The notes under the pieces: model-generated
Seen by the model: the letters and a program-made list of their open reading frames with translations, nothing else
What the model was told of the DNA's origin: nothing
The model's database searches: none
Assembly (NCBI GenBank): GCA_043827325.1
Contig: JBDRPF010000021.1
Location: forward strand, 2,255 to 66,254
DNA from: Pseudomonadota bacterium
Lineage (GTDB): Bacteria; Desulfobacterota; Desulfobacteria; Desulfobacterales; UBA11574
Length of the DNA: 64,000 nt
Direction: 5' to 3'
Shown: positions 25,801 through 45,649 of the stretch, piece after piece
Layout: each line of letters begins with the position of its first letter
Numbering within the stretch: position 1 is the first letter of the stretch
Program-made: the position numbers and the translations under genes

Positions 25801-25857
25801 GTCAAGCTGCACGACATCGTGACATCCAAAGACTTTGACCGTGTTTACAACATTCAT
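22822..25857 (-). CDS. large gamma-class N6-adenine DNA methyltransferase (Eco57I/type IIG-like architecture, about 1011 aa)
   Basis: Motifs YYTPKNIARYLVD, ILDPSCGAGIFL (SAM binding, motif I) and VIGNPPW (motif IV). About 300 aa lie N-terminal and about 500 aa C-terminal (TRD-like). The track start is a TTG at 25863. The ATG at 25857 forms an ATGA overlap with the lexA stop. Confidence 0.85.
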   Translation of the reverse strand: MNVVNTVKVFGCHDVVQLDGEPTPRHLEYLDLLKVSGRKNLKVNAVAEFQSRPLLYIVSGDQIRDIDNNRRLDFQCLLANRGERAYLGILSPGELNVYPVNLDRSVLVNSRKRTIKKNSPEAPLFFQSVVNGVFTLEGQPETPDHVFKAILDLMTRSSEILIDKFSLNPMDVLSFLGRALFFRFLWDREIVRSSELPSVCPKARLLEDCFRNIENSVETCRWLDETFNGDLLPFSCDYTDVFRQADEQTNGKLFHHLLAILKGWKHAGKNAFQLTIDWGDLDFAHIPIGVLSQVYENFSKIWDSQQREQTSAYYTPKNIARYLVDDAFEGVADKKNAQILDPSCGAGIFLVLTFRKLFAARWEHDGKWPDTKAIQYILYNQLCGFDVSESALRLAALSLYITAIELNESPRPPESLRFLEPLQGIVLHNHRRTEEQTTRGFVLGSLSPELSKDFNGCFDVVIGNPPWTSLKGDKKERKQHNAVFTELTRQILTSRGLKEIAHTYRNPDNNPDLPFLWRSTQWTKPGGIIAMALPGRIFLKQSGPGTRAFNAILQGVEITGILNGSNLSDSAVWPDMNEAFMLFFARNRVPAADHHFHFVTPHFEKHLNDKGRLRIDYQSAQPVAATEAAKDSRLLKTLAVGTALDVEVVRKLDELEWPAVESYWKSQGLYSGVGYILSPKQDQNDASFMRELSNFAPPEDGGFSVDVSSLLEFGRSTAHRPRDPELYAPPLLVVPESPGRSPFSPKSWIVREKAVFPSSYYGFSAHGSREPDSVMALLHLITHTELFRYHVLMTSSKMGAERRTFLKTSVENFPFPSIDLLSKRQRQRAVKLSGQLETALKKPWKEINDFIFDLYGLDKYDRQVVKDTLEVAEPFKEAKDRANAPPLKTERKDFYVELQRLIAPSFDITNEKLSVDEVEIARQDIHSPWHFFAVSSNATSASLTQSIQKRLISQITEAANKTGCSRVVVHEKGRLLVGITGQYRYWTLSRARLCALDILRHHLDAFPMRKS

Positions 25858-26537
25858 GAGCAATACCTGTTATTCCCGGTTCGAACAATTCCCCGGTAGC
25901 GCCCAAGAATACGAATAAGATCGCTCTTGCCCGCAGCATACTTGAGGTCTTCAAAGACAGGGTTTTCGGATTTAAGTACAAGCGACCCAGACGACAAATA
26001 GACTCGTTTCAATGTAACTGCCTGCTCAATAAGAACAGCGGCTATTTCCCCGTTCTCAACACAATCCCGTCTCTGTATGACAGCAATATCACCGTTTTTG
26101 ATTCCTGCTCCTGTCATACTGTCACCAAGCACATGGAGCGCAAAAAGTTCACCTCCACCAAACAAAGAAGGAGGAATGGGCAGATGGTCTTCAAAATTCT
26201 GTTCTGCCCATATCGGGACTCCCGCTGCAATACTACCGAGTAAAGGGATAAGGTTTTCCTGCTGCCTGAAAATCGGTACAGGTAACGACACCAACTGGAT
26301 TCCACGAGCTTTCCCGCAATTTAGGCGGATATAGCCTTTTTTTTCGATCAGCGCAAGGTGGCTTCGCACAGCATTGGGGCTGACAAACTCAAAGTGGTCA
26401 CGTATTTCCTCCTGTGTGGGCGGGTAACCATTTTCCATCTGCCATCCGCGGATGAATTCATAAATCTTAGATTGTTTGTCTGTCAAACTCTTCACGATAG
26501 CCCCGCACGTTCCTTTAAATACTGCTATATTAAACAC
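25854..26537 (-). CDS. lexA: LexA repressor (S24 autopeptidase)
   Basis: LexA wHTH (LTDKQSKIYEFIRGWQMENGYPPTQEEI), Ala-Gly cleavage site (GSIAAGVP), Ser (LGDSM) and Lys (VTLKR). The track start (GTG at 26537) lies inside the operator. The probable start is the GTG at 26495, giving 213 aa. Confidence 0.88.
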   Translation of the reverse strand: MFNIAVFKGTCGAIVKSLTDKQSKIYEFIRGWQMENGYPPTQEEIRDHFEFVSPNAVRSHLALIEKKGYIRLNCGKARGIQLVSLPVPIFRQQENLIPLLGSIAAGVPIWAEQNFEDHLPIPPSLFGGGELFALHVLGDSMTGAGIKNGDIAVIQRRDCVENGEIAAVLIEQAVTLKRVYLSSGSLVLKSENPVFEDLKYAAGKSDLIRILGRYRGIVRTGNNRYCS

Positions 26538-26553
26538 TGTTATAATATACAGT
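26536..26553. promoter_or_regulatory. SOS box (LexA operator), CTGT-N8-ACAG type
   Basis: Perfect 18-bp palindrome ACTGTTATAATATACAGT about 40 nt upstream of the probable lexA start. It contains TATAAT-like hexamers. Confidence 0.75.
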
Positions 26554-26678
26554 ACTCAAAAAATGCAAGACTTTTTTCAACCTATTTCCCCTTAAGCTCA
26601 CGGATCGTGCATTGTTCAAAAAGAACAGTAAAATATTGGAGTCACAATTTACTATACTTACTTAATTCCCAATCGCTT

Positions 26679-27758
26679 TTATGCGGTCCACTGAAACTTG
26701 TGTTTAAGCTTGTTGAAATAGTTCCATTTTTCGGTCAGATGCTGGAAGCGTCCTACGACAATTCCCGGGGAAATCTCAAGCTCATCCGCCAGGCGGATTA
26801 CATCTGCTTTGGCCCGAAATACGGCAATTTCCGGATCTCGATCACGAGGGATTAGAATTTCGGCGGCAAACTCATTGGCTTTGTGTTCACGCGGATCATC
26901 TATACTGCCGTCGTTGATATAAAGATCCTTCTTGCTGTCGTAAAGAACATGGCCGGCTTCGTGAAAAAAAGAAAACCAGAACTGATCCTCCATTTTGCCG
27001 CGAAGATTAAGTAGAATCATTGCCTTGGACGCAGACTGCCATTTTGTTGCTCCATGCCAGGGTACTTTTTTCATTTCCGGAACCAGCGCCAGGGCAACAC
27101 CGGAATCTGCGCAAAGCTGAATGGTTTCGGGAATAAATACCTCTGGATCCTTGACTGTCAGCAAGCGAATCTTTTTTAAGGCCCGGATGAAAGTATTTTT
27201 ATCAAAAGGCAGACAATCAATCTGGTGGGCCTGGATTTCTCCCAATCTGATCCAGGCGGATGCCGGACCGGGGCGGGTCTCAAAACACTGCGAGCGCCGC
27301 GCTGCTACGGCCGGCTTTGCCCAGATATCTCTCCACGCCGACACACTGCTCAACCCATAGAACTTTAATGTCTCTCTTAAAAGAAGCACTCTGTCCTTTT
27401 GGGGCTCAATCGCGTTGCGCTGGATAAGTTCTTGGGTGGGGATCGTCTTCAACCAGTCGAGATCGGTTTTAAGATCCTTTCGTTCCTTCGTTTTTGCCAA
27501 CTGCTCCCGGTATTGGGCCTCCAGATTGTTCCACATACGCGCCGGAACACCTGTGGCCAATTCAAGCTTGTTGGCGGTTTCATAGGAGATGGGCTGACCC
27601 CCTTTGAAAATACGATTGAGCGTCTGGACTGTCAGACCGGTGCGAACGGCCAGTTCTTTCTGAGACATATTCAGCGACTCCATAACCCCCTTGAGCGTTT
27701 CTCCAGGAGGAATCGCGTAATCAGGCTCAAACCCGTAGTTTTTTTTTGCCTTCAACAT
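26679..27758 (-). CDS. HTH (XRE)-ImmA/IrrE metallopeptidase fusion, HigA-position antitoxin
   Basis: 359 aa. N-terminal HTH (MSQKELAVRTGLTVQTLNRIF) and C-terminal zinc-peptidase motif FFHEAGHVLYD (HExxH). Lies directly downstream of higB. Confidence 0.8.
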   Translation of the reverse strand: MLKAKKNYGFEPDYAIPPGETLKGVMESLNMSQKELAVRTGLTVQTLNRIFKGGQPISYETANKLELATGVPARMWNNLEAQYREQLAKTKERKDLKTDLDWLKTIPTQELIQRNAIEPQKDRVLLLRETLKFYGLSSVSAWRDIWAKPAVAARRSQCFETRPGPASAWIRLGEIQAHQIDCLPFDKNTFIRALKKIRLLTVKDPEVFIPETIQLCADSGVALALVPEMKKVPWHGATKWQSASKAMILLNLRGKMEDQFWFSFFHEAGHVLYDSKKDLYINDGSIDDPREHKANEFAAEILIPRDRDPEIAVFRAKADVIRLADELEISPGIVVGRFQHLTEKWNYFNKLKHKFQWTA

Positions 27759-27775
27759 AATATTTGCTCCCCTGG

Positions 27776-28111
27776 TTAATGTGTGTCGATAACCTCAACG
27801 ATTTCAATTTCAGTGATGTTTGACCAATCCAGTCCGCCGTCTTGGGTAACCGGTATCGGATCATCTGCAGGAATAAACAGAAGCCGATACGGATGTTCGA
27901 GGTCGACGGACAACTGTCCATCACGATCCCCTGACAAGGAGTGGCATCGCGGGGGCGGTACTTTCGAAATGTCAGCCAAACAGAATGCGGCTTTTAATTC
28001 CATCAATCGTTGCTGCAGTTTCCGGGCCATCTTCGGCCCGAGTTTTTTGATGGCTTCGTTTGTATTGTTGCAGATTTTCTGCAACCTTTTTGTTCTAAAG
28101 TATATTACCAT
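27776..28111 (-). CDS. higB: HigB-like (plasmid maintenance system killer, RelE/ParE superfamily) toxin
   Basis: 111 aa. The pattern FRTKRLQKICNN...LQQRLMELKAA...HSLSGDRDGQLSVDL..PYRLLF is typical of HigB/killer proteins. Confidence 0.8.
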   Translation of the reverse strand: MVIYFRTKRLQKICNNTNEAIKKLGPKMARKLQQRLMELKAAFCLADISKVPPPRCHSLSGDRDGQLSVDLEHPYRLLFIPADDPIPVTQDGGLDWSNITEIEIVEVIDTH

Positions 28112-28538: not shown

Positions 28539-29630
28539 CTAGGAACTGTGGTATCGATAGTATGCCGCGCAGGTTCCTTCGCTGGAAACCATGCAGGCCC
28601 CTACCGGGTCCTCCGGCGTACAGACCTTTCTATAGAGGGCGCACTCCGGAGGGGTTTTCAAACCCGTAAGAATTTCACCGCACGCGCATCCTCTGGGCTC
28701 CTTTGCCTCGGGAACATGGATTTCAAATATCTTTTGCGCATCAAATGCCGAAAACTCCTCTCGTATGGCCAGACCGCTTTCCGGAATGACGCCGATACCG
28801 CGCCAAACGGCGTCCACGGTTTCAAAAATGTCCAGAAGGATCTTTTGCGCCTTTTCATTTCCGCTGAAGGTCACGGCCCGCCGGTAACCGTTTTCCAGCC
28901 TGGCATCCCCGTTTTCGATCTGTTTCGCCAGCATGAAAATGGCCTGCAGGATATCCACCGGTTCAAAACCCGCGATGGCGCACGGCACGGCATATTTCTC
29001 GACCAGGGAAAGGTACGCCCTTTCGCCGATAATGACGGAAACGTGGCCGGGGAGAATAAACCCGTCCACCTTGACGTTTCCGGTTTTCATCAGCGCGACC
29101 AGAGCGGGCGGAACCAGCTTGTGAACGGAGAACACGGAATAGTTCTCGATCCCCATCTGTTTTGCGGCGACGATGGATGCGGCGATTGTCGGTGCGGTTG
29201 TTTCAAACCCCACCCCCAGAAAGACCACCCTCTTTTGGGGATTTTTTTTGGCGATCTCGAGGGCATCGAATGTCGAATAAACGATCCGGATGTCCCCGCC
29301 GCCCGCCCGTTCATTTTGCAGGGAAGATCGGGTCCCGGGGACTCTTATCAGATCTCCGAATGTCGTAACGATGACATCTTCTATTCCGGCCAGCTCTATA
29401 AAGGCATCGATTTCATGCTGGGCCGTCACACACACCGGGCACCCGGGGCCGGAGAGCAGAGAAATGGTGCCCGGGAGCAAAGACCGTATGCCGCTTCTGA
29501 AGATCGACATGGTGTGGGTACCGCAGACTTCCATGAGGCGGATGTCTTTTTGGGCGACTTTTTTTATCTGTTCAACGAGGGCCGCTGAAATGGCCGGATC
29601 CCTGTATTCTTCCATGTGTTTGATTGTCAT
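28539..29630 (-). CDS. hypD: hydrogenase maturation protein HypD
   Basis: 363 aa. Motifs MEVCGTHT, GPGCPVCVT, GFETTAP and PGHVS. Confidence 0.93.
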   Translation of the reverse strand: MTIKHMEEYRDPAISAALVEQIKKVAQKDIRLMEVCGTHTMSIFRSGIRSLLPGTISLLSGPGCPVCVTAQHEIDAFIELAGIEDVIVTTFGDLIRVPGTRSSLQNERAGGGDIRIVYSTFDALEIAKKNPQKRVVFLGVGFETTAPTIAASIVAAKQMGIENYSVFSVHKLVPPALVALMKTGNVKVDGFILPGHVSVIIGERAYLSLVEKYAVPCAIAGFEPVDILQAIFMLAKQIENGDARLENGYRRAVTFSGNEKAQKILLDIFETVDAVWRGIGVIPESGLAIREEFSAFDAQKIFEIHVPEAKEPRGCACGEILTGLKTPPECALYRKVCTPEDPVGACMVSSEGTCAAYYRYHSS

Positions 29631-29811
29631 TTTTTTTAACTTTTAACCTCTCTATTTCACCCTCCCCTATCCCCTCCCATCAAGGGGGAGGAATTCTTAA
29701 GAATATAAAACGTCAGGTTTCATGTAAAATCAAGAAAGAAAAGACCTGATTATACTGGCTTTATCACGACCAGGAATGGACGTCCTTTTAAATGCTTCAA
29801 CACGTCGCTCG

Positions 29812-32094
29812 CTATCCCTTCGCAACCGCGGCGGCAACCACGGCCTGGCCCAGAGAAATACCCCCGTCATTGGTCGGAACGCGGCTGTGCGCAAAGACAC
29901 GAAACCCTTTTTTCTCCAGTGCCTGCGTCAGACCGGTCAAGAGCAGAGAGTTCTGGAACACGCCTCCGCTTAAAACCGCGTCTTTGATGCCGGTTTCTTT
30001 TCTCAGTGTGCCGCACAGTTCTGCAAAAATCCGGATCAGCGTCGCGTGAAACTTTCCACCGATCTCGGAAGGCCCTGCCCCTTTTTTAACATCCCCCACC
30101 ACACCGCGAATCACGGGTTCCGGCAAAACGGTATAGATTCCCCCTCCGGAAGACCATTCATAGTCATAAGCCGTATCCGCGATTTCCCCGGTCATCATCT
30201 CCAGTTCCATGGCCGCCTGCCCCTCGTAGAACACGTGATTTCGGATGCCGGTTATCGCCGCAACACCGTCAAACAGCCGCCCCAGACTCGACGTCCATGG
30301 AGAATTGACCTTTTTCCGGATCATATCCACAATAAATTGAATACGCTCTTTAGGGATTTCTTCCAGGCCCGGAAGTTCGATGTCCGGAAATTCCTCACCG
30401 AAAGTATGGTAAAGATAGCTAACAGCCATGCGCCAGGGTTCCTTGATAGCGGCCGCACTTCCGGGCATCGGGACATAAGCCATGTGCGCAGCCCGCCTGA
30501 ATCGACCCGGTTCGGTTACCAGCACCTCTCCGCCCCATATCGCTCCGTCCGAACCGTACCCGGTACCGTCAAAAGAAAGCCCGATGACCGGTCCATCCAG
30601 CCGGTTTTCCGCCATACAGCTAACGATGTGCGCGTGATGATGCTGGACCTGCACCTTCTCAACACCCGTCAGTTCCTGCGCATAGATGGTACTCAAGTAA
30701 TCGGGATGAAAATCATAGGCGACAATCTCCGGATCGATGTCCAGAATCCGTTTCATGTGATCGATGGTCATTGTAAAAAATTCATAGGATGAAAGATTTT
30801 CAAGGTCACCGATGTGCTGGCTCAAAAAAGCGGTTTTTTCTTTTGTGACACACACCGTGTTCTTTAATTCAGCACCGCAGGCGAGGATATGGGGAACTTT
30901 CTCTTTCAAAAAAACCGGGGTCGGAATGTACCCTCTCGAGCGACGGATCAGACGGGGTGAACCGGCCGTTTGCTTGACAATAGAGTCGTCACTCCGAAGG
31001 TAGATGTCTCTGTTGTGAACCAGAAAATAATCGGCAATACCGGAAAGCCGCTCGAAGGCATCGCCGTTGTCGATGGCGATGGGCTCCTCGCTCATGTTGC
31101 CGCTGGTCATCACCAGCGCTAAAAAACCATGACTCAAAAGAAGGTAATGAAGCGGCGTGTAGGGAAGCATCGCGCCAAAGTAGTTGTTTTTTGGCGACAC
31201 TTCATCCGACAAACCCTCCGGGATTTTCTTTTTTAAAATGACAATGGGCCGCTGGGGTGACGCAAGCAACGCCGCCTCTTCCGGATCGACATGCGCATAG
31301 GATAGAATCTGTGTAATATTCGGGGACATGACCGCAAGCGGCTTTTGCTCCCGATGTTTTCTTTTCCGAAGCCGCCGCACCGCTTCATGGTTTTGCGCGT
31401 CCACGGCAAGGTGAAACCCGCCCAACCCCTTGACGGCAACAATGTGCCCCTGTTTTAAAAGTGATGCGGTTTCTTCAATGGGGCTCTGAACCTCGATTTT
31501 TTTCCCGGAGGTTTCATGGAGGGTGACATGCGGCCCGCACACAGGACACGCATTGGGCTGGGCGTGAAATCTTCTGTTCCCCGGATCATCATATTCGGCC
31601 CGGCAGTGGTCACACATTGTAAAATGCTTCATGGACGTATTCGGCCGGTCGTAGGGAATATCGTCAATGATGGTGTATCTGGGGCCGCAGTTGGTGCAGT
31701 TGGTAAATGGATACCCATGCCGGCGATCTCCCGGATCGAAGATCTCTCTCAGGCAGTCTTCACAAACAGACACATCCGGTGAAATCAGTGTGGCCCGATG
31801 GGATTCAGCCTTGCTGGCGACAATAGAGAATTCCTCGAACCCCCTGACGGATTCGTCTTGAATCAGAACCTCGGTGATACGGGCGATCGGCGGGGGCTTT
31901 CGGGTGAGATCGGCGCAGAAACGGTCGACACTTTCATTGGGCCCTTCAATGTGCACGGTTACACCGGATGATGTGTTCGCGACCGTTCCTTTTATTCCGA
32001 ATTGTCTTGCGAGCTGATAAACAAACGGCCGGAATCCCACGCCTTGAACGATACCGCTGATTTTGAGCTGTTTTGCAGTGATTTTTTTTGCCAT
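29812..32094 (-). CDS. hypF: carbamoyltransferase HypF
   Basis: 760 aa. Acylphosphatase-like N-terminus (GIVQGVGFRPFVY), two CxxC-x18-CxxC zinc fingers, and YrdC-like and Kae1-like domains. Confidence 0.93.
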   Translation of the reverse strand: MAKKITAKQLKISGIVQGVGFRPFVYQLARQFGIKGTVANTSSGVTVHIEGPNESVDRFCADLTRKPPPIARITEVLIQDESVRGFEEFSIVASKAESHRATLISPDVSVCEDCLREIFDPGDRRHGYPFTNCTNCGPRYTIIDDIPYDRPNTSMKHFTMCDHCRAEYDDPGNRRFHAQPNACPVCGPHVTLHETSGKKIEVQSPIEETASLLKQGHIVAVKGLGGFHLAVDAQNHEAVRRLRKRKHREQKPLAVMSPNITQILSYAHVDPEEAALLASPQRPIVILKKKIPEGLSDEVSPKNNYFGAMLPYTPLHYLLLSHGFLALVMTSGNMSEEPIAIDNGDAFERLSGIADYFLVHNRDIYLRSDDSIVKQTAGSPRLIRRSRGYIPTPVFLKEKVPHILACGAELKNTVCVTKEKTAFLSQHIGDLENLSSYEFFTMTIDHMKRILDIDPEIVAYDFHPDYLSTIYAQELTGVEKVQVQHHHAHIVSCMAENRLDGPVIGLSFDGTGYGSDGAIWGGEVLVTEPGRFRRAAHMAYVPMPGSAAAIKEPWRMAVSYLYHTFGEEFPDIELPGLEEIPKERIQFIVDMIRKKVNSPWTSSLGRLFDGVAAITGIRNHVFYEGQAAMELEMMTGEIADTAYDYEWSSGGGIYTVLPEPVIRGVVGDVKKGAGPSEIGGKFHATLIRIFAELCGTLRKETGIKDAVLSGGVFQNSLLLTGLTQALEKKGFRVFAHSRVPTNDGGISLGQAVVAAAVAKG

Positions 32095-32173
32095 GGCTGA
32101 CTGAGGAATTGAAGCTTATGTGACGATCTTATTAAAAAAGGGGGGCATGAAGTTTACGCAACCGGGTTGCATT

Positions 32174-32419
32174 TCATGAATTTGATTCATCTTCAAGTCG
32201 ATCCACCAGCGCGGCGGCCTCTCGCAGCAGGTTCAGCGTTTCCATTGCCACGGCCTCATCGAGTTTTTTGATGGCAAAACCGGCGTGGACGATCACGTAA
32301 TCGTTAACATTCGCATCTTCAAGGAGTAGCAGACTGGCCTCTCTTTTGACGCCGTCAACATCTATGGTTGCCATTTCATTTTCAATTTTTACAATCTTCG
32401 ATGGAATCGCCAGACACAT
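32174..32419 (-). CDS. hypC: hydrogenase assembly chaperone HypC/HupF
   Basis: 81 aa starting with MCLAIPSKIV. Confidence 0.9.
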   Translation of the reverse strand: MCLAIPSKIVKIENEMATIDVDGVKREASLLLLEDANVNDYVIVHAGFAIKKLDEAVAMETLNLLREAAALVDRLEDESNS

Positions 32420-32912
32420 TACCCTTAACTCCTTTTTTGTACGTGACCCCCAGGCGATCGAGCTCTTTTAAAACCATATCGATGACCGGGTCAATTTTCG
32501 ATGCGGTTGTTTCCGTAAGCTCAATGCTGAGCGTGTCGATATCTTCGGGCTCCGCACCGACAATGACTGTTTCCGGCACCGTATCAAGGATCTGGCACAT
32601 GGTCAAGGCCTCTAAAAAATCGACCTCGTGAAGGGAGCTTTTCGTCCGGATACGCTCGGGCAGATGGGTTCTTTCGAAACGATACAACGAACCGGGTTCG
32701 CCTTTATTTTTTATGGCATCGACAACGATCAGATGGTCTGCTTCGGACATGACGCCAAGAAGGTTCATGCCAAGGACGCCGCCGTCCACCACCGAAACAT
32801 TTTCCGGAAAATCATATGTTTCAAACAACCTTTCAATAACGCGCACACCAAATCCTTCGTCGCAGAAAAGAATGTTACCGATGCCAAGTATTACAATTTT
32901 TTTTGAATTCAT
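32382..32912 (-). CDS. hydrogenase maturation endopeptidase (HybD/HyaD family)
   Basis: 176 aa. Motifs ILGIGNILFCDEGFGVRV and VVDA. Confidence 0.88.
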   Translation of the reverse strand: MNSKKIVILGIGNILFCDEGFGVRVIERLFETYDFPENVSVVDGGVLGMNLLGVMSEADHLIVVDAIKNKGEPGSLYRFERTHLPERIRTKSSLHEVDFLEALTMCQILDTVPETVIVGAEPEDIDTLSIELTETTASKIDPVIDMVLKELDRLGVTYKKGVKGNVSGDSIEDCKN

Positions 32913-33101
32913 TTTGGGAACCGTTATAAATTTCCATTCGAAAGTTTCTTCAGATATCCTATTCTCTCAAAATATTCAAGGGCAAGAATCCATCCGGCGA
33001 CGGATATCCCGCGTGGAGAGATTTTTTAAAGGTGTGATCGGAAATCGGGTGGGTTTCCTCTCAGCCTCCCGATTTGATGGAGGCTGAGAGGAAAATAGAC
33101 G

Positions 33102-34754
33102 TTATAGAACCTTGAACTTATACACCTGATTGGAATCAGGATCGATAACATGAACACCGCAGGCGACGCAGGGGTCAAAGGAATGGACCGTCCGCAAAAT
33201 CTCCAGGGGCCGCTTGGGGTCTTCAACCGGCGTCCCGATGAGGGCTTCTTCCACCGGTCCCATCTTGCCCTGGGAGCATCGGGGTCCGAGGTTCCAGGTC
33301 GACGGCACGACATACTGGTAATTTGCGATCTTCTTTTTGTCGATATTGATCCAGTGACCCAGAGAGCCTCTCGGCACGTCGTTCAATCCCACGCCCTGGG
33401 CGCTGTCGGGCATTTCCCAGGCCTGATAGGTCTTGGTATCGCCGTTCTTGATATTTCCGACCAACTCCATAATCCAGCCTTCCATGGCATTTCCGATGAC
33501 AAGGGTCTCGAGCCCTCTGGCCGCGGTTCTTCCCAGGGTCGAAAAGAGAGCCTGAACCGGAACACCCAGGGTTGCCAGTGTGCTGTTCACCACTTCAACG
33601 ACCTCGGGTTTTCCCTTGGCATAGGCCACAAGCACCCGTGCCAGCGGACCCACTTCACAGGCCTCCGTTTCATAACGCGGTGCCTTGAACCATGAGTATT
33701 TTCCGTCTCCGGGTTTGTATGCGGGATTTTCCTTCAGCGGTTTGGTCTCGCCCTCGTAAGGATGTTTGGGCGTTCCGGCTTCGTACCACGCACGCTGAAC
33801 GTCCTCAACAACCGCTTCCTGTTTGGCCATGGCCACGCCGGCAAGATCCCGGTTTTTTATCACGCCTCTGGGCATAAACAGGCTGTCGGGCTCCTGATCG
33901 CTCATGGGGAATTCGCCCCAGGCGTGGAAATTGGTGGTGCCGCCGATGGCGCCCCAGTCCTTGTAAAAGGATGCCACCGCAACAAGGTCAGGGATATAAA
34001 CATTTCTGATAAAGCTCTGCGTCTCTTTCCAGAGATACAGAAATTCAGCGATCCTGTCGGGTGTCAGGTCCTTGACGCAGGTGACGCCGCCCACCACCAG
34101 CCCTTGCAGGTGGGGGTTCTTTCCGGCGAATATGGCGTGCATCCGGGCGGCCCTGGCCTGCATTCGCAATGCTTCAATATAATGGGCGCAGGCCATGAGG
34201 TTCGCTTCAGGCGGGAGCTTGTACGCCGGATGTCCCCAGTAGGCATTGCTGAAAGGACCCAGTTGGCCGCTTTCGACAAAGGTTTTCAGCCGCTGCTGAA
34301 CCTGTTTGTAATAGGCAGCCCCCCCAAACGATGCATTGCTGACAGTGTCCGCCAGTGCCGCGGTTGCCGCAGGGTCGGCTTTGGTCGTCGCACTGACGAT
34401 ATCGACCCAGTCCAAAGCATGGAGATGATAAAAGTGAACAAGGTGGTCTGCTTGAAACTGTGCGCCGTGGAGAAGGTTTCGAATAATCCGGGCGTTGTCC
34501 GGAATCCTAACCTTTACGGCGTCTTCAACTGCCCTCACCGAGGCCAGTGCATGTGTCAACGTTCAGACGCCGCAGGAGCGCTGAACAAAATGGTGCGCGT
34601 CCCGGGGATCACGTCCCTGGAGAATCAGCTCAATCCCCCTGAACATCTGGCCCGAACTCCAGGCGTTCTTGACTTTGCCGCCTTCGACCTCTACCTCGAT
34701 GCGAAGGTGGCCTTCTATTCTGGTGATTGGATCTATGGTTATTCTTTTACTCAT
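33102..34754 (-). CDS. [NiFe] hydrogenase large subunit with in-frame TGA (candidate selenocysteine) in the N-terminal Ni-binding motif
   Basis: Track ORFs 34563..34754 (…[10 protein letters not shown]) and 33102..34559 ([13 protein letters not shown]…[13 protein letters not shown]) are one reading frame, joined by the TGA at 34563-34565. Joined, they read [16 protein letters not shown] against the canonical RxCGVCTxxHALAS. The total is 550 codons. Confidence 0.85.
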
Positions 34755-34807
34755 ATTATCTCCTCCTTTTTTCGTAAAAAGGATTACACGTTAATTGATG
34801 CTTCCGG

Positions 34808-35767
34808 TTACATTTCCTGATAGAACGGGCTGAACTTGTCCCAGAAATCGGGTTCACTGCATCCGATGCAGGGGTGGCCCGCTTCAACCGGCCAGCTGGT
34901 GCCGTCATTGAATTTTGCGATCGGGCAGTTGTTGTATGTTTCAGGCCCTCTGCACCCCATTTTGTAGAGGCAGTATCCCATGGCCGCCTCTTTGGACCCG
35001 AACTCGGTGACAAACTCATCATTTTCAAAATGGCCTCTTCTCGGGCACTGATCGTGAATGGTCTGCCCATAGGCAAAGAGCGGTCTGCCGAGATCGTCCA
35101 GGGCCGGAAGTTTGCCGAGGAGGAGATAGTTTACAACGGTTCCGACGAAGTTTATCGGATTCGGGGGGCAACCCGCTATGTTCACTGTCTTCACGCCCAG
35201 GGCCTCGCTGACACTCTTGTATCCGCCGGGATTCGGTTTGGCCGCCTGGACGCCTCCGAATGTAGAGCAAGCGCCGATGCAAATCGTTGCGGCGGCCTTG
35301 GGAATGACATCCTTTGCGATCTCCAGAAATGTACGGCCGCCGATTTTTCCGTAGGCGCCGTTATACTTCGTCGCAATGGCCCCTTCCACAACGCAGATAA
35401 ATTTTCCCTCGTACTTTTTCACCGCTGCGTGGAGCTGCTCCTCGGCCTGCATTCCGGCAGCCGCCATGATGGTTTCATGGTATTCTACGGAAAGCACCTC
35501 AAGAACCAGTTCATCAACATAAGGATACTGGGATCTCAAAAGCGCCTCCGAGCATCCCGTACACTCGGCAAAGTGAAGCCATACGACCGGCGTGCGCTGC
35601 GCTGGCGCGGCAAACACCTCTGCCACCTTCGGGACAAACGCCGACGAAAGCCCCATGGTAGCGGTAAGCGCCGTGCAGTACTTCATGAAGTCTCTTCGTG
35701 AAACTCCCTTCTGCTCTAGCCTTTTGTAAAATTCTTTTTCCCTTTCCATTGGCACCTCCTGATGCAA
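34808..35767 (-). CDS. [NiFe] hydrogenase small subunit (Tat-exported)
   Basis: 319 aa. Twin-arginine signal SRRDFMKYC and Fe-S cysteine motifs (CTGCSE, GxCxxxGG, CIGC). Confidence 0.92.
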
Positions 35768-36094
35768 TTAGTAGTAGCTCAAAATACGACGACATCTAAG
35801 GCTTAAAACAATTCGTTGCCCCTGCAGCTTTTGCCCCTGTTTTTTATACCCCAACAGGGCTGAAGCTGAATGAATCTGCCTAAAACCATCTCCTTTATTC
35901 TGGATTCCCCAAAGATGAAAAAACTCTTTAACTATGCCCAATTAAATGTTTTTGTCAAGTTTATATTCCGAACATCATTCAGACAAATCAATTCCACCTG
36001 CCCGATCCGTGAGGACCGCGTCCGGACGCCGACAGGGAAAGCACCGGGATCCGCTGCATACGCACAGTGTGAAGTACAAAATGCAACTGCGGTT

Positions 36095-36937
36095 TTAATG
36101 CTTTCGTTTATGATCGATGCTGTGCCTGAGCCAATGGATCCAGGGCCCGAAGCCGTCTTCGGTTTTGGCCGACACCTCAAAGACCGGCATGCCGGGATGT
36201 ATCTGCAGGATATTTCTTACAGCCGCCTCCCGATCGTAATCGAGGTACGGGAGCAGGTCGATTTTATTCAGCAGTGCCACATCGCATTCACGAAACATCA
36301 GGGGATATTTTAACGGCTTGTCTTCGCCTTCCGTTACGCTCAGAACCACCGCCCGCGCATCCTCGCCGATATCGAACTCCGCGGGGCAGACAAGGTTCCC
36401 GACGTTTTCCACGATCAACAGGTTAACGCCATCAAGGTCGAGGCCGCTTGCCGCCTTTTCAATAACGTGGGCAGCGAGATGACAGTCACCGCCGAACTCG
36501 TCCGTGTTGATCTGAACCACCGGCGCACCGGATTCAGCAAGTCGATCGGCATCGTTTGTGGTACAGATATCTCCGACAATGACCGCGCATTTTATATCCG
36601 GCATCACATGCGACAGCGTCTTTTCAAGCAGCGTCGTCTTTCCGGACCCCGGAGAGCTCATCACATTGAGTACGAACACCTCTTTTTCCAAAAAAAACGT
36701 CCTGTTCCGCTCCGCCATCGCATCGTTGACGGCCAGGACCCTTCGAACAATTTTAATTTCCCGTGTGCCGGTTTTCTTTCTCTCTATGGCAGCACCGGTG
36801 TTCGCATGGGAATGGGGGGGGGAGTGAAAATCCTTGTGGTGGTAATACACTGGTGTTTTATTAAAGTTTATCGGCAATTTTCGTATCCTCATCCGAAATT
36901 TCAATGGATTCAATGTCCAGTTCACGGCCCGAGACAA
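36095..36937 (-). CDS. hypB: hydrogenase nickel incorporation GTPase HypB
   Basis: P-loop SSPGSGKTTLLEKT and His-rich YYHHKDFHSPPHSHA. The true start is uncertain: the track ORF overlaps hypA, and candidates are the ATG at 36892 or a GTG just after the hypA stop. Confidence 0.88.
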   Translation of the reverse strand: MSRAVNWTLNPLKFRMRIRKLPINFNKTPVYYHHKDFHSPPHSHANTGAAIERKKTGTREIKIVRRVLAVNDAMAERNRTFFLEKEVFVLNVMSSPGSGKTTLLEKTLSHVMPDIKCAVIVGDICTTNDADRLAESGAPVVQINTDEFGGDCHLAAHVIEKAASGLDLDGVNLLIVENVGNLVCPAEFDIGEDARAVVLSVTEGEDKPLKYPLMFRECDVALLNKIDLLPYLDYDREAAVRNILQIHPGMPVFEVSAKTEDGFGPWIHWLRHSIDHKRKH

Positions 36938-37235
36938 TTTCGATGGCGCCGCTCTTGCATTTTTTGCACGTGAACGCCGGCTCTGTTATCGTCCACTCGG
37001 TGCGGCACTCCCGGCAGACCGCAACAACCGGGACTTCTTCGATATCGAGCACTGCACCGGAGAGCGGCGTATCCTTGGCCGCAATTTCAAAACAGAAGCG
37101 GAGGCTCTCCGGAACGACCGCAGCCAGTTTGCCCACTCTGAGATTGACCTTTTCAACCCGGGCATTCCTCATGTCTTCGGGTATCGAAGCGGTTGCAATC
37201 TCCAGTATCTGCATTGCAATGCCCATTTCATGCAT
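36861..37235 (-). CDS. hypA: hydrogenase nickel insertion protein HypA
   Basis: Canonical N-terminus MHEMGIAMQIL, so I trim the track ORF from 37268 to 37235. Zinc site CRECRTE...CKKC. Confidence 0.88.
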   Translation of the reverse strand: MHEMGIAMQILEIATASIPEDMRNARVEKVNLRVGKLAAVVPESLRFCFEIAAKDTPLSGAVLDIEEVPVVAVCRECRTEWTITEPAFTCKKCKSGAIEIVSGRELDIESIEISDEDTKIADKL

Positions 37236-37435
37236 GAATAGCCTCTTAAAGTGAGTCTCAACCCGCATAGCGGGTGGCCTCAGTAAGCCTCTCCTGAATG
37301 GGGGCCAAAAGCGCTTTTGAGCCTAAATTCTAAATCCGAAGTACGCGCGAAGCATCCCGACGGGGATAAATCCGAAACAAATTCGAATGAACAAAATTCA
37401 AAATTTTAAACAATAATTGTGCGATGTTCAACATA

Positions 37436-37643: not shown

Positions 37644-38516
37644 CTATTGGAAGACTTCGGCACACAGCTCCCCAAACGTGCCGAGATTTTTGCAAATATG
37701 TATGCCTCCTGCCTTCATGGCCTCGATCTTGCCCTGAGCCGTGCCGCTGCTGCCGCTGATAATGGCACCGGCGTGCCCCATGCGCCGTCCCGGCGGGGCG
37801 GTCAGTCCGGCAATAAACCCCACCACCGGTTTGGATACATTTTCCGATATAAATTCCGATGCTTCCTCTTCGGCGGTTCCACCGATCTCCCCGACCATAA
37901 CGATTCCCTTTGTTTCGGGGTCCTTTTCAAAGGCATCCAGGCAGTCGATGAAGTTCGTGCCGTTGACGGGGTCGCCGCCGATACCGATACAGGTGGTCTG
38001 CCCGATTCCCTGCCGGGTCAACTGGTGAACCACTTCGTAGGTCAGGGTCCCGGAACGGGATACAACACCGATGGGACCGCCGGGCGTGTGAATGGGGCCC
38101 GGCATGATACCCACCTTGCACTGCCCGGGCGTGATGATCCCGGGGCAATTGGGCCCGATCAGGCGGGATGTCATCCCTGCCAGGAAATTCTTGACCTTGA
38201 TCATATCCATAATCGGAATGCCTTCGGTGATGGCGACGATCAGATCGATCCCGGCGTCGGCCGCCTCCATGATGGCGTCAGCCGCAAAGGCCGGCGGAAC
38301 GAAAATCATGCTGCAGTTGGCATTGGTTTGTGCCACCGCCGCTTTAACCGTATTGAACACCGGTATGTCATCCATCTGCTGCCCGCCCTTGCCCGGAGTT
38401 ACACCGGCAACGACGTTGGTACCGTAAGCCGCACACTGCCGGGTGTGAAACTGCCCTTCTTTTCCGGTTATTCCCTGAACGAGAAGCCGTGTGTTGCTGT
38501 CGACGAAGATGCTCAC
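37644..38516 (-). CDS. sucD: succinyl-CoA synthetase alpha subunit
   Basis: 290 aa. Motifs [11 protein letters not shown] and the phosphohistidine loop MGHAGAI. Confidence 0.93.
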
Positions 38517-38597
38517 TTTTGTTCCCTCGCTTTTATTTAGTCCTGAAAAACATAGTCCTCCGGGCCCGGATTCGTTACGTTGAAAACCGCCAAAAAA

Positions 38598-39764
38598 CTA
38601 TTGACCGGCAACCATCTCCGCAACCTTTTGGGCCGCGTCTTTCAGATCTGCCGCCGTGATGAGATTGAGACCCGACTCCGCCAGAATCTTCCGGCCTTCT
38701 TCCACGTTCGTCCCTTCCATCCGGACGACCACGGGAACGGTGATGCCTGTTTTTTCCGCCGCTTTTACAACACCTTGCGCCAGAATGTCGCATCGCAATA
38801 TCCCGCCGAAGATGTTAATCAGAATCCCTTTGACACTTTCATCCCCCAGCATGATCCGAAAACCGTTTTCGACCATCTCCGCGCTGGCGCCGCCGCCCAC
38901 ATCCAGAAAATTGGCCGGTTCCGCGCCGGCCAGTTTTATAATATCCATGGTGGCCATGGCCAGACCCGCGCCGTTGACCATGTTGCCCACATTGCCGTCC
39001 AGCTTGATGTAGTTGAGATGGAACCTGGAGGCTTCGACCTCCAGGGGGTCTTCCTCGTCAATATCCCGGTATTCCAGAATATCCTTGTGGCGATACAGGG
39101 CGTTGTCGTCAAAATCAATCTTGGCATCCAGGGCGATCACGGTCTCATCTTCCGTGATCACCAAAGGGTTTATCTCCACCAGAGAACAGTCATAGCCGAC
39201 AAAGAGCCGGTAGAGATTCCCCAGCATTGAAACAAACGGCTTCATCACGGCAGGCGCCAGCCTCAGGCCGAATGCAACCTCCCGGCAGTGATACGGTTGA
39301 ATCCCCACCAGCGGATCGACATATACCTTGATGATCTTTTCAGGGGTTTCCGCGGCGACCGTTTCAATATCCATGCCGCCGGCCTCGCTGGCCATGATAA
39401 CAATTTTTGCGGTTCCCCGGTCCGGTATGATGCTCAAGTAGAGCTCTTTTTCGATGTTCAGGCCCTGCTCCACCAGCACCTTCTTGACCGCCCTTCCCTC
39501 CGGTCCGGTCTGGTGCGTCACCAGGTTCATTCCGATGATGTCGCCGGCAATGACCGCCGCTTCATCAAGCGAACCCGCCAGTTTAACCCCGCCGCCTTTT
39601 CCCCGGCCCCCGGCATGGATCTGTGCTTTAATCACCACCGGGAATCGGCCCGATTTTTCAGCGATCTTCCGGGCTTCATCCGGGCTGAAGGCAACACCGC
39701 CGTCCGGTACGGGGATGTTGTATTTCCTGAACAGTTCTTTTGCCTGGTATTCGTGTATCTTCAT
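38598..39764 (-). CDS. sucC: succinyl-CoA synthetase beta subunit
   Basis: True start MKIHEYQAKELF at 39764, preceded by AAGGAG. The 50-aa N-terminal extension of the track ORF overlaps the upstream gene and is rejected. Confidence 0.92.
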   Translation of the reverse strand: MKIHEYQAKELFRKYNIPVPDGGVAFSPDEARKIAEKSGRFPVVIKAQIHAGGRGKGGGVKLAGSLDEAAVIAGDIIGMNLVTHQTGPEGRAVKKVLVEQGLNIEKELYLSIIPDRGTAKIVIMASEAGGMDIETVAAETPEKIIKVYVDPLVGIQPYHCREVAFGLRLAPAVMKPFVSMLGNLYRLFVGYDCSLVEINPLVITEDETVIALDAKIDFDDNALYRHKDILEYRDIDEEDPLEVEASRFHLNYIKLDGNVGNMVNGAGLAMATMDIIKLAGAEPANFLDVGGGASAEMVENGFRIMLGDESVKGILINIFGGILRCDILAQGVVKAAEKTGITVPVVVRMEGTNVEEGRKILAESGLNLITAADLKDAAQKVAEMVAGQ

Positions 39765-39816
39765 GAATCCGAATCTCCTTTTATGCGCAGAGTACAAAGC
39801 GCAGAGCGCCATGCGC

Positions 39817-41814
39817 TTAGCCGATAACGCACAGCACAGCCCCCTTGGCCACCGAATCTCCGCTGCTGAAATTGATTGCCTTGATCGTTCCGTCCGCCGG
39901 GGCCGTAAGGGCATTCTCCATTTTCATGGCTTCGAGGATGACCACCGTATCGCCCGTGCTGACGGCATCTCCCACTTCTTTTTCATAGCGCACGATCATG
40001 CCGGGCATCGGCGCTGTCAGCGGCGTGCCGTCGACAGCGATTGCCGCCTTGGGCGGTGCTTCGGATTTTGCAGGCTTCGGCGGTGCGGGCGGTGCGGGTC
40101 TGGGCAGCGAGGGCGCGGGTGCCGACGCCGGTGCCCGTACGGCTCCCGGCTGCACATAACTGATCACCGGGGATCCCCCCGGTTCTTCCACGCCAACCTC
40201 AAAGTACTCGTCATCCACAAAGACGTTGAAAGTCCGCAGGCCCTCACCCTTGGGCGGCGCTTCCTTTTCTTTCTTTTCCACCAGTTGCCCGAGCTTGGCC
40301 AACCTCACCAGTGCTTCTTCGGCTTTCACCTGTTCCAATGTCCGGGGCTTGACTTCCTCCGGCGGGTCCTCCTTGCCGTGCTTCCATTTCAAAAACCGCT
40401 TCCCGGTCAGCGGATACAGCGCATAAACCAGCACGTCATCCATGTCCACGGCTAAATCCTTCACATCCGCTTTGGCCTTGTCCAGTTCGGGCTCCAAAAC
40501 TTCTGCGGGCCTGCAGGTAATCGGCTTCTCTCCCCTTGAATATCCCTTCAACGCTTTCTTCTGGACTTCAGGGTCTATGGGAATCGCGGTCTTGCCATAA
40601 AGGCCGTAACACAAATCCTTGACCTGGGCGGTAATCATCTTGTAGCGCTCGTTTTCATCATCAAAAAGCACATTGTTGACCGTTTGTATCCCGACGATCT
40701 GGCTGGTGGGCGTCACCAGCGGAATTTGCCCGAGCTCCTTTCTCACCCGGGGAAGCTCCTTGTACACTTCGCCGATTTTGTCGAGGGCGTCCATCTCCCG
40801 CAACTGGTTCACCAGATTCGAGAGCATCCCCCCCGGCGTCTGGTGCAGCAGAACATTGATATCGATGATCGACACCTTTGAATCGTCCAGCAGGTTCCTG
40901 TACTTGGGCATGACCAGTTTTTCCAGGGTCTCGTTGATCTGTGCCAGCTGACGGATATCGAACCCCGTGTCTCGGTTGGTCCCCAGAAGTGTCATCACCA
41001 GCGGTTCAACCGCCGGATGGGATGTCCGGTAGGCATAGGGCGACATGCAGGTGTCCACAATGTCGACACCGGCCTCGATGGCTTTCAAATGGCTCATGGG
41101 AGCCATGCCCGATGTAAAATGGCTGTGAAGGTGAACCGGCACGGTAACCACCGCCTTGATTGCCTTCACAAGGGCATAGGCGTCATAGGGGGCGATCAGG
41201 CCCGCCATGTCTTTGATGCAGATCGTGTCCGCGCCCATGGTCTCCAGGGCCCTGGCTTTGGCGACATAATAGTCGAGCGTATAGACATCTCCGCCCATCC
41301 TCGGCTCGGTCATGGAATAACAGATACACCCCTGAAAATGCTTTCCGCATGCCTTGATCATTTCAACCACCGTCTCAAAATTCCGGTAGTCGTTCAGCGC
41401 GTCAAAGGTCCTGAAAATGTCCATCCCGTTTGCGGCCGCCCGATCCACGAATGCCCGGGCAACATCATCGGCATAATTTCGATACCCCACCAGATTCTGT
41501 GCTCTCAGGAGCATGGAGAACGGCGTCTTTTTCATATACCGTTTTAACGTACGGATCCGTTCCCACGGATCCTCGTTCAAAAAACGGTGCATGGTGTCGA
41601 AGGTTGCACCGCCCCAGGTCTCCACGGCCCAGAAACCGACCTCATCCATCATCTCCGCCACGGGAATCATGTCTTCGGTCCGACCCCGGGTGGCAAACAG
41701 GGACTGGTGTCCGTCGCGAAGGGAAAGGTCCTCCACCTTCAGCGGGTTCTCCGCTACAGTCCTGTCCTTGCTGTAATCCATGGGGGTTGTTTTGACTTGA
41801 TCATGATCACTCAT
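39817..41814 (-). CDS. carboxyltransferase 5S subunit (pyruvate carboxylase B / OadA-like) fused to a biotinyl carrier domain
   Basis: HMGL-like TIM barrel (LRDGHQSL), an Ala/Pro linker and a C-terminal biotin site EAMKMEN. The likely start is MSDHDQ at 41814, after AGGAG. Confidence 0.88.
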   Translation of the reverse strand: MSDHDQVKTTPMDYSKDRTVAENPLKVEDLSLRDGHQSLFATRGRTEDMIPVAEMMDEVGFWAVETWGGATFDTMHRFLNEDPWERIRTLKRYMKKTPFSMLLRAQNLVGYRNYADDVARAFVDRAAANGMDIFRTFDALNDYRNFETVVEMIKACGKHFQGCICYSMTEPRMGGDVYTLDYYVAKARALETMGADTICIKDMAGLIAPYDAYALVKAIKAVVTVPVHLHSHFTSGMAPMSHLKAIEAGVDIVDTCMSPYAYRTSHPAVEPLVMTLLGTNRDTGFDIRQLAQINETLEKLVMPKYRNLLDDSKVSIIDINVLLHQTPGGMLSNLVNQLREMDALDKIGEVYKELPRVRKELGQIPLVTPTSQIVGIQTVNNVLFDDENERYKMITAQVKDLCYGLYGKTAIPIDPEVQKKALKGYSRGEKPITCRPAEVLEPELDKAKADVKDLAVDMDDVLVYALYPLTGKRFLKWKHGKEDPPEEVKPRTLEQVKAEEALVRLAKLGQLVEKKEKEAPPKGEGLRTFNVFVDDEYFEVGVEEPGGSPVISYVQPGAVRAPASAPAPSLPRPAPPAPPKPAKSEAPPKAAIAVDGTPLTAPMPGMIVRYEKEVGDAVSTGDTVVILEAMKMENALTAPADGTIKAINFSSGDSVAKGAVLCVIG

Positions 41815-41859
41815 CTTATATTCTCCTCTTAAATGGATTTTTCCGTTATTCCTTTTCAT

Positions 41860-41909
41860 AAGCGGCGCAGCCGCGCCGGATAAAATCGCGAAGCGATTTT
41901 ATTTATTTA
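41860..41909. repeat. short double-hairpin intergenic element, copy 1
   Basis: aagcggcgcagccgcgccggataaaatcgcgaagcgatttt. Its reverse complement matches 61363-61416 at 36 of 43 positions (hairpins AAAATCGC/GCGATTTT and GCGGC/GCCGC). Confidence 0.75.
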
Positions 41910-42103
41910 AACGCCCTCATCTGCATCATGGTGCGCATCTGCATCTGAGACTGACGACCGCTCACGGCCCACAGCCGCGCCGGCGCCGCTGCCCGCTCAA
42001 CCGCAGGCGTTGCAAGAGACTGCATATAAATCGCTTCCTCTTCTGTCTTGATATACTGCATGACCGCGGCCATTGCGGCGGCCGTTTTTTTTCGCTTTTC
42101 CAC
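41903..42103 (-). CDS. small protein in the transcarboxylase operon (possible accessory/OadG-like subunit)
   Basis: 66 aa. AAAMAAVMQYIKTEEEA is reminiscent of small decarboxylase/transcarboxylase subunits. The assignment is tentative. Confidence 0.45.
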   Translation of the reverse strand: MEKRKKTAAAMAAVMQYIKTEEEAIYMQSLATPAVERAAAPARLWAVSGRQSQMQMRTMMQMRAFK

Positions 42104-42120
42104 TGTTACACCGTTTTACT

Positions 42121-42418
42121 AGAGAATCCAGGCTCAAAGGCTCTAGCTTACCCCCGGAAGGGGCTGTTTAAATTAAAGCCGAACAAGTTAAAAGTGTCTA
42201 AAGTGATCTAAAATGCCTAAAGTTATGGAGTCGCCTTCAGCCGTCGTAGCCAAGGCTACTATGGCGAAGTCGGCTCGCTCCCCTGATTTTATATAATTGA
42301 TAGAATTCCTTAACTTTAGCTCACTTTAAACTTTAGTTCACTTCAAACTCTTGAGACGGTACTTTAGGCAGAGCCATAGGACTCTGATCTGGCCCAGAAG
42401 GCCGGGTTTTCAAAGACC
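42121..42418 (-). repeat. intergenic repeat element, copy B (ACTTTAG/CTAAAGT-rich)
   Basis: Same block order and orientation as 12118-12430. It fills the entire spacer between the 12S subunit stop and the 66-aa gene start. Confidence 0.8.
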
Positions 42419-42425
42419 AAACAAA

Positions 42426-43979: not shown

Positions 43980-44269
43980 TATCCTAATCCTTTCGCATTA
44001 TATTCTGTCTCAAAAATGCATCTGACACCCAACGGCTGTGCTGCCGACCAACTCAAAACAAACTGTCCATCCCGTTTATAGCGGGGCTCCGCCGATTCGT
44101 GGCCTGCGGCAGGTTCCATTCGGCCCCGGGTTCATGGCCGCAGGCGGCCGGGCCGACCGGCGCTTCATCCGTTCTCCCGGGGTTTATTCGCCTCAGGCGG
44201 GCGGGATTTCCCCTGAACGTGATCTGCTATTTTTGAAACAGCCTGGTGTCATTCTTTAAGGCTTTTAAC

Positions 44270-44557: not shown

Positions 44558-44634
44558 TTTGGGACCCTCCGCTTGTGCGTAAAACAGTCGAGCTCATCGA
44601 ATGATATGTTTTATCGAAAACACCTTCCTTGTTT

Positions 44635-45627: not shown

Positions 45628-45649
45628 TGTTAATCCTGATTATATTCTA

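Follow-up and report, generated by a model that had tools for sequence, protein, structure and literature searches.

A [NiFe] hydrogenase large-subunit gene on the minus strand of a 64,000-nucleotide stretch of Desulfobacterales DNA (contig JBDRPF010000021.1 of assembly GCA_043827325.1; hereafter the window) is interrupted by an in-frame UGA at codon 64. This codon is very probably recoded to selenocysteine (Sec), by way of SelB, tRNA-Sec and an RNA hairpin, in a full-length hydrogenase of group-1b type. The TGA stands at the alignment position of a metal-ligand cysteine, is conserved in other genomes, lies in a frame under purifying selection, and is followed by a covarying hairpin. An earlier sequence-only reading of the window had proposed Sec at a non-canonical active-site ligand position, and the conservation of the TGA, the selection on the frame and the covarying hairpin support that proposal.

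The frame opens with an ATG at 34754, preceded by AAGGAGGAG, and reaches its stop at 33102 on the minus strand. The sole interruption of its 550 codons is the TGA at 34565-34563, as the sequence-only reading had stated. The elements on which the argument turns are the following.

33102-34754, minus strand: [NiFe] hydrogenase large-subunit gene (Pfam PF00374), 550 codons including the UGA, group-1b-like (Desulfovibrio HynB/HynA type).
34563-34565, minus strand: in-frame UGA, codon 64, proposed Sec, located by translation and by alignment to 1H2A chain L.
34551-34580, minus strand: N-terminal nickel-binding motif R59-S-C61-G-V-U64-T-L-T-H68 (U64 being the proposed Sec), aligned with QRTCGVCTYTH of 1H2A.
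34528-34548, minus strand: hairpin resembling a selenocysteine insertion sequence (SECIS), from RNAfold, RNAalifold and conservation across genomes.
33150-33176, minus strand: C-terminal motif D527-P-C529-V-A-C532-G-V-H535 (DPCVACGVH), both ligands ordinary Cys by translation.

Both halves of the gene match Pfam NiFeSe_Hases, the 63-aa part over profile positions 1-25 and the 485-aa part over 29-508. The best PDB match is chain L of the Desulfovibrio vulgaris Miyazaki enzyme 1H2A (E=1.2e-212, query residues 4-550), followed by 1FRF and 2FRV. In the 1H2A alignment residue 64 lies opposite Cys84, which bears out the claim that the TGA replaces a metal-ligand cysteine of the RxCGxC motif. This second Cys of the N-terminal motif is the Ni-Fe bridging ligand (PMC13582414). 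The codons of the three other metal ligands, C61, C529 and C532, specify Cys, and the C-terminal motif is the ordinary DPCVAC that had been read from the translation. The mature PDB chains stop at query residue 535, the His at which cleavage by the protease is expected. We take the bridging cysteine to be Cys68 in D. gigas, Cys84 in D. vulgaris MF and Cys79 in Escherichia coli Hyd-1. The nearest relatives are 75-93% identical. The protein search gave 119 homologues of full length, and every one of them carries Cys in the codon-64 column, as do the PDB homologues. There is no NCBIfam equivalog for the large subunit (NF033181 scores 579.5 bits, with a cut-off of 600), and among large-subunit residues none was diagnostic of Sec versus Cys, the largest frequency difference (0.55) looking phylogenetic. 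The predicted enzyme is a standard group-1b hydrogenase in all but codon 64. Because TGA is the ordinary stop for 14 of the 41 genes in the window, the recoding would be site-specific and not the product of an altered genetic code; a search of the 64 kb for further UGA-interrupted genes gave only antisense shadows and overlaps.

An error of sequencing or assembly at a true TGC or TGT codon has the one-base distance in its favor and nothing else, and we give it almost no probability. An independent assembly, that of run SRR26275510 in Logan (contig L248), is 100% identical to the window over positions 29769-37368 (7.6 kb; 7,600 nt), TGA included. P0003, at 93% amino acid identity the nearest relative to come out of the protein search and the sole truncated one among the best 120, is encoded on a contig from a different JGI sample (L001; Ga0366827_1036631, another metagenome) that has the same TGA, the same hairpin and the same split into 63-aa and 478-aa pieces. 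The TGA also occurs in at least 115 other genomes and in 61 metagenome contigs.

The genomes were found by scanning one genome per GTDB species with a degenerate DNA pattern, R-x-C-G-V-TGA-T-x-x-H-A, which allows the CXXU form only. The scan gave at least 119 stretches, 4 of them chance matches and at least 115 hydrogenase large-subunit genes with TGA at this codon. On the Desulfobacterota side they belong to Desulfobacterales, Desulfosarcinaceae, Desulfatibacillum, Desulfobulbia and Desulfobacca; the other carriers are Thermodesulfovibrionales and other Nitrospirota, Anaerolineae and other Chloroflexota, Spirochaetes, Rokubacteria, and one Nitrospinaceae metagenome-assembled genome (MAG). MAGs under the names Desulfobacca acetoxidans, Desulfatibacillum and Thermodesulfovibrio (L020, L061 and L117) are among the carriers. 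Among the matches listed, 96 genes were complete, in that their 3' end lay inside the fetched DNA, and in 87 of these the frame stays open through 482-525 codons as far as a DPCxxC motif, which has Cys in every case. Metagenome contigs were scanned for one motif type, the R[ST]CGVxTYTHA context with TGA, TGC or TGT allowed; the 118 usable matches divided into 61 TGA and 57 TGY, and those of the ALSSVRAV subfamily were nearly all TGA. Comparison of orthologues, which the sequence-only reading had proposed as a check, therefore finds the TGA shared by at least 115 species genomes and by 61 of 118 metagenome matches, with a conserved and covarying hairpin. In a neighbour-joining tree, Sec-type and Cys-type genes are interleaved within the Desulfobacterales subfamily, which suggests frequent switching, and the nearest relatives of the window gene are all Sec-type. 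The Sec form may be the commoner one in some marine and sediment Desulfobacterales lineages. One Chloroflexi MAG (L085) has a Sec-type motif, CGV-TGA-TTVHAV, at 4001 and a Cys-type motif at 5828, both on the plus strand and 1.8 kb apart; these may be tandem Sec/Cys paralogues, by analogy with the methanogen Vhu/Vhc back-up systems.

The gene also appears to be alive both before and after the TGA. For the window against L001, the ratio of nonsynonymous to synonymous substitution rates (dN/dS) comes to 0.053 in the 63 upstream codons (dS 0.26) and to 0.096 in the 486 that lie downstream (dS 0.43), and comparisons with more distant TGA-bearing relatives give similar values. A pseudogene, made by a nonsense mutation at a TGC or TGT codon, would differ from the functional gene by a single base, and 9 of the 96 complete genes among the matches listed are indeed frameshifted or truncated, which may reflect assembly errors or real decay. 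Such an origin is at odds with dN/dS values of 0.05-0.10 on either side of the TGA, with a TGA held in at least 115 species and followed by an intact frame in 87 of the 96 complete genes listed, with the conserved and covarying hairpin, and with the full set of maturation genes retained nearby. We consider the pseudogene explanation effectively refuted, with hardly any chance of being right. The sequence-only reading had left room for a very recent nonsense mutation or a sequencing error, and both are rejected by the same TGA in at least 115 species and by the intact, selected frame. The nine disrupted genes are those of L043, L052, L091, L104, L105, L107, L110, L111 and L033; several come from a single series of long-read MAGs (isolate names beginning with MFD), and indel errors are a likely cause of the disruptions.

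The hairpin downstream of the TGA has a lower stem of ACUG (34548-34545) paired with CAGU (34531-34528), a G.G mismatch (34544 with 34532), an upper stem of CCUC (34543-34540) paired with GAGG (34536-34533), and GGU as its apical loop (34539-34537). Its first paired base lies 14 nt from the TGA, and the GGU loop starts 26 nt after the U of the UGA. The structure originally proposed at 34548-34528 is therefore present and does carry GGU at its apex; the spacing of 16 nt given for it needs correction to 14 nt, and RNAfold adds a C-G pair that closes a GGU triloop. Downstream of the UGA, 117 TGA-type sequences could be sorted into four hairpin registers.

Register A: CUGUCCUC-GGU-GAGGGCAG, 53 sequences, Desulfobacterales and some others.
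Register B: ACGCACUG-GCUU-CAGUGCGU, 23 sequences, Nitrospirota and Desulfobulbia.
Register C: CAGCUC-CGUGC-GAGCUG, 32 sequences, Anaerolineae and Spirochaetes.
Register D: CUCGGUC-CGGGC-GAUCGAG, 9 sequences.

Pairing is 87-100% at every position in all four registers, and a loop G stands at position 1 or 2 throughout; a G at one of these two places in the apical loop is the criterion used for bacterial SECIS elements (PMC13582414). The helices of registers A and C were predicted by RNAalifold unguided, and the 44 distinct register A sequences recovered the window helix. Register C shows compensatory double changes at 4 of its 6 pairs (one pair, for example, is A-U in 12 cases, U-A in 11 and G-C in 2), and 150 of 150 cells are paired; the observed pairing or covariation score was reached by 0 of 500 shuffles, and controls with slid partners were 17-63% paired. 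For register A, 99.4% of cells are paired, a value that 0 of 500 shuffles reach (slid controls 39-71%), and 7 cells have double changes (U.G, A-U and G.U at one pair).

Codon usage separates the demands of the RNA from those of the protein. The peptide ALSSVRAVE is encoded with CTG-TCC-TCG-GTG-AGG-GCA in register A of Desulfobacterales and with CTC-AGC-TCC-GTG-CGA-GCT in register C of Anaerolineae; one peptide is thus written in different codons that form different hairpins, so that RNA structure, not protein, dictates the codons. Across 106 Sec-type sequences, four codons of the register A stem (TCC, TCG, GTG and AGG) never vary, and a fifth, GCA, is replaced once, by GCG. Third-position entropy in this stem is 0 in 44 species representatives, and 0.3-1.5 bits in flanking codons. 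Six Cys-type genes with the same local peptide, used as matched controls (4 of 6 additional Cys-type loci, whose local peptide differed, were excluded), have TCT, GTA, AGA and GCN at the stem codons. By these sequence comparisons the downstream hairpin is a conserved, covarying SECIS-like element beyond the needs of the protein sequence, and its four registers suggest repeated origin or remodelling of the SECIS.

Two further observations concern this region. P0002, a Cys-type orthologue with 79% identity to the protein of the window (L243; JGI Ga0366840_1008880, gene 501-2150), keeps an almost intact register A hairpin, CUGUCUUC-GGU-GAGGGCAG, which is degraded in the other five matched Cys-type genes; it may represent a recent Sec-to-Cys reversion or a pre-adapted state. 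The window and L001 have 0 substitutions over about 117 nt, from 35 nt upstream to 79 nt downstream of the TGA, and 11 differences in the 160 nt that precede this stretch. As the invariant stretch exceeds the hairpin, the RNA signal may be longer, or the identity may be due to chance.

The TGA could instead be a true stop, with two pieces (63 aa and about 480 aa) that assemble or with termination that serves regulation. Gene callers do divide the gene in this way, giving 63-aa and ~480-aa open reading frames (ORFs) in the window, L001 and L248, and methanogens are known to have split large subunits (VhuA/VhuU). A downstream piece would, nevertheless, lack a plausible start: the TTG two codons past the TGA in the window has no ribosome-binding site, most relatives have TAC at that codon, and the first possible start is then a GTG inside the hairpin. 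Since translation could restart only past the TGA, a split protein would have no residue at the position of the bridging ligand. The frozen synonymous sites, too, fit an RNA signal and not a restart site, and we regard a true stop as very improbable.

Recoding to Sec has several points to contend with. As regards selenium incorporation, the class is known from sequence alone. Neither selA, selB, selD nor tRNA-Sec was found in the 64-kb window, searched by a tRNA scan, by NCBIfam and by Pfam on ~50 other ORFs. The nine disrupted relatives described above count in the same direction. The hairpin alone is no more stable than shuffled sequence (69-nt stretch, z = -0.10; 92 of 200 shuffles fold as well), so that only the comparison across genomes lends it significance, and Rfam returned chance matches only, both for the whole window at the gathering threshold and for 34450-34620 at E<=10. 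Within register A, finally, the G.G stem mismatch occurs only in the window and L001. It results from the replacement of Ser by Ala (TCC to GCC) and has been kept through the divergence of the window and L001 under purifying selection. The predicted energy of the window segment, -11.2 kcal/mol, equals the -11.3 of the family consensus because GCA and GTT, the codons used here, supply an additional A-U pair on the outside. The mismatch is evidently tolerated.

With regard to the machinery, the window contains no tRNA genes, hence neither tRNA-Sec nor the alternative tRNA considered next, and a tRNA scan of 60 related loci found no tRNA-Sec, only a recurrent tRNA-Ser pair. In many genomes of Desulfobacterales (L003, L009, L015, L030, L032, L034, L037, L047, L054, L055 and L061) this pair, tRNA-Ser(UGA) and tRNA-Ser(GCU), sits at a distance of 1-3 kb from the operon of the Sec-type hydrogenase; it is absent from the window. 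Use of Sec is documented in the taxa to which the carriers of the motif belong. The related isolate Desulfobacterium autotrophicum, for one, has the full Sec machinery and at least 31 selenoproteins (PMC2702500); this serves as background, not as a test, and we infer that the machinery is present in the source genome.

Takano et al. (PMC13582414) raise the caveat that UGA may be decoded as Cys through tRNA-ReC, a tRNA-Cys that has a UCA anticodon and depends on SelB, in which case the window enzyme would be an ordinary [NiFe] hydrogenase, all-Cys. This route would likewise need a conserved SECIS. The tRNA scan found no tRNA-ReC in the window, and the TGA and SECIS are kept in at least 115 species of several phyla even though the replacement of one base, yielding TGC or TGT, would suffice to encode Cys. 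The TGA state appears to be selected, because Cys-type relatives interleave with Sec-type ones in the tree. Decoding as Cys is therefore unlikely in our view, although it is the least improbable of the alternatives to recoding, and the residue inserted at the UGA is probably Sec and not another.

Recoding to Sec would operate as follows. The gene would yield a full-length, periplasmic large subunit of group-1b type, exported by the twin-arginine translocation (Tat) pathway. The UGA at codon 64 would be read as Sec by the bacterial SelB/tRNA-Sec system, directed by the hairpin 14 nt downstream with its GGU apical loop ~26 nt after the UGA. A selenolate would then replace the thiolate of the Ni-Fe bridging Cys, Cys61, Cys529 and Cys532 would remain Cys, and HypABCDEF and the endopeptidase would mature the enzyme as usual. 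The placement of selenium as a bridge between Ni and Fe is predicted from homology only.

The closest known enzymes are those of group 1b, from D. vulgaris Miyazaki (1H2A), D. fructosovorans (1FRF) and D. gigas (2FRV). They align with the window protein end to end and have the same motifs, and they share with it a Tat-signal small subunit, the C-terminal His cleavage site and the lack of a cytochrome b gene; they differ in having Cys at the bridging position (Cys84 in 1H2A), where the window has UGA. The HysAB enzymes of group 1a (Desulfomicrobium baculatum, 1CC1; D. vulgaris Hildenborough, 2WPN) are likewise periplasmic, occur in sulfate reducers and have one Cys of the active site replaced by Sec through UGA and a SECIS. 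In HysA, however, Sec is the terminal Ni ligand of a C-terminal DPUxxC motif, whereas the window protein has DPCVAC there and would carry Sec at the bridging N-terminal ligand. The HysA structures match the large subunit only over residues 177-546, with E about 1e-100 as against 1e-212 for the [NiFe] enzymes, and the NCBIfam models for HysA (NF045518, 422 bits, cut-off 780) and its small subunit (NF045520, 257 bits, cut-off 470) both score below cut-off. All three clusters of the HysAB small subunit are [4Fe-4S], with Cys in place of the medial-cluster Pro, which the window keeps. Identity with canonical HysAB [NiFeSe] hydrogenase is thus ruled out by DPCVAC, by the failed NCBIfam cut-offs and by the retained small-subunit Pro.

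Sec at the N-terminal motif has been recorded before. Baltazar et al. (2011), as cited in PMC13582414, noted N-terminal CXXU in two sequences of Group 1 and one of Group 3, so that the statement of the sequence-only reading that described [NiFeSe] enzymes carry Sec in DPUxxC was incomplete; recent reviews of prokaryotic selenoproteins list hydrogenase large subunits with UxxC only. As that citation presents them, the Group 1 CXXU sequences resemble the window enzyme in having Sec at the second N-terminal Cys, a predicted Ni-Fe bridge, together with C-terminal Cys. They number two, known to us through this citation, and in the searchable literature we found nothing on their SECIS elements, spread or biochemistry. 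Takano et al. (2026; PMC13582414) described N-terminal Sec in 47 sequences of Group 4, together with SECIS hairpins in which a loop G is conserved and a mosaic Sec/Cys phylogeny, and the window gene fits the N-terminal CXXU type defined there, with UGA at the second Cys and C-terminal Cys kept. Those Group 4 variants (CXXU, UXXC and UXXU) share with the genes studied here the N-terminal Sec, a loop G at position 1 or 2, and hairpin remnants in Cys-type genes. They belong, however, to membrane-bound, energy-converting, multi-subunit enzymes in which Sec forms amount to ~0.2%, whereas the window encodes a periplasmic two-subunit uptake enzyme of Group 1b type.

Chemical precedent exists at the same ligand position of another Group 1 enzyme. 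The engineered C79U variant of E. coli Hyd-1 is active, with 13% of native H2 oxidation, the best of four single Sec variants, and has a lower Michaelis constant (KM) for H2; unlike C576U, it gains no O2 tolerance (Evans et al. 2021, PMC8020662). Although C79U was made with an artificial UAG/EF-Tu system in an O2-tolerant group 1d enzyme, its activity indicates that Sec at the bridging position is chemically feasible. At the RNA level the window hairpin resembles the E. coli fdhF-type SECIS in lying within the coding sequence a short way past the UGA with an apical G(G)U at a fixed distance, and differs from it in having no evident bulged U and in its internal G.G mismatch.

Beyond the window gene, we think it rather likely, though with less assurance than for codon 64 itself, that Group 1 bridging-Sec hydrogenases form a large and essentially unstudied class, with at least 115 species, at least three subfamilies, four SECIS registers and switching between Sec and Cys. 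N-terminal CXXU in Group 1 had previously been noted only in silico, and what is new is that it is far commoner there than the two recorded sequences would suggest. If the class is real, selenium has been selected many times at a ligand position left unexplained by mechanistic accounts centred on the terminal, C-terminal Sec. Explanations of why hydrogenases use selenium (O2 tolerance, a bias toward H2 production, proton transfer) were built on one position, the terminal DPUxxC ligand, and a natural, widespread bridging-Se enzyme would offer a second, independent case. Native Sec/Cys pairs that differ by little else would permit a direct test of the effect of a mu-selenolate on the Ni-Fe site. 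Because gene callers routinely split these genes, hydrogenase surveys under-count or misclassify them and selenoproteome surveys miss them.

The large subunit is part of a complete hydrogenase cluster, on the minus strand and in the order HypA, HypB, small subunit, large subunit, endopeptidase, HypC, HypF and HypD, followed by HypE, and the operon has no cytochrome b gene.

37268-36861, minus strand: HypA (Pfam PF01155), upstream of the structural genes; gene call in L248.
36892-36095, minus strand: HypB (Pfam PF02492), for nickel insertion with HypA; gene call in L248.
34808-35749, minus strand: hydrogenase small subunit, 313 aa from MEREKEF (Pfam Oxidored_q6 and NiFe_hyd_SSU_C; NCBIfam hydA and TAT_signal_seq); gene call in L248.
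32382-32912, minus strand: HycI/HynC-type maturation endopeptidase (Pfam PF01750).
32174-32419, minus strand: HypC chaperone (Pfam PF01455).
29812-32094, minus strand: HypF carbamoyltransferase (Pfam HypF domains).
28539-29630, minus strand: HypD (NCBIfam TIGR00075, 490 bits).
16919-17929, minus strand: HypE (NCBIfam hypE, 466.6 bits).

The twin-arginine signal of the small subunit is matched by TAT_signal_seq at residues 22-49. The small subunit also retains Pro before a CxxC, as in enzymes with a [3Fe-4S]-type medial cluster, and this Pro is presumably the counterpart of P238 in D. fructosovorans. The HypE gene was considered as a possible SelD and rejected, the selD model scoring only 30 bits as compared to 466.6 for hypE.

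Between hypD (29630-28539) and hypE (17929-16919) lies a block of ~10 kb (17962-28111) that looks like a mobile or defence island within the hyp cluster. It encodes a HigA-like antitoxin (27758-26679), a LexA/S24-like repressor (26537-25854), a 1013-aa Eco57I/MmeI-type methyltransferase-restriction fusion (25863-22822), three ORFs that matched no family (22822-20265), a DUF6398 protein (19982-19347) and a Fic protein (18996-17962). Adjoining the hydrogenase is a methylmalonyl-CoA pathway cluster (37644-48357) with genes for succinyl-CoA synthetase SucCD, a biotin carboxylase/transcarboxylase subunit, a carboxyltransferase, MeaB, a B12-dependent methylmalonyl-CoA mutase and a glyoxalase-fold epimerase, which suggests a propionate-metabolising member of the Desulfobacterota. 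A few genes past hypE, at 12563-15748, the window encodes a 1061-aa protein in which an MMPL/RND-type transporter is fused to cNMP-binding and GGDEF domains. In another genome a 1078-aa protein of the same fusion architecture (L246, 2214-2641) directly follows a Cys-type orthologous hydrogenase, and the linkage of the two may be conserved.

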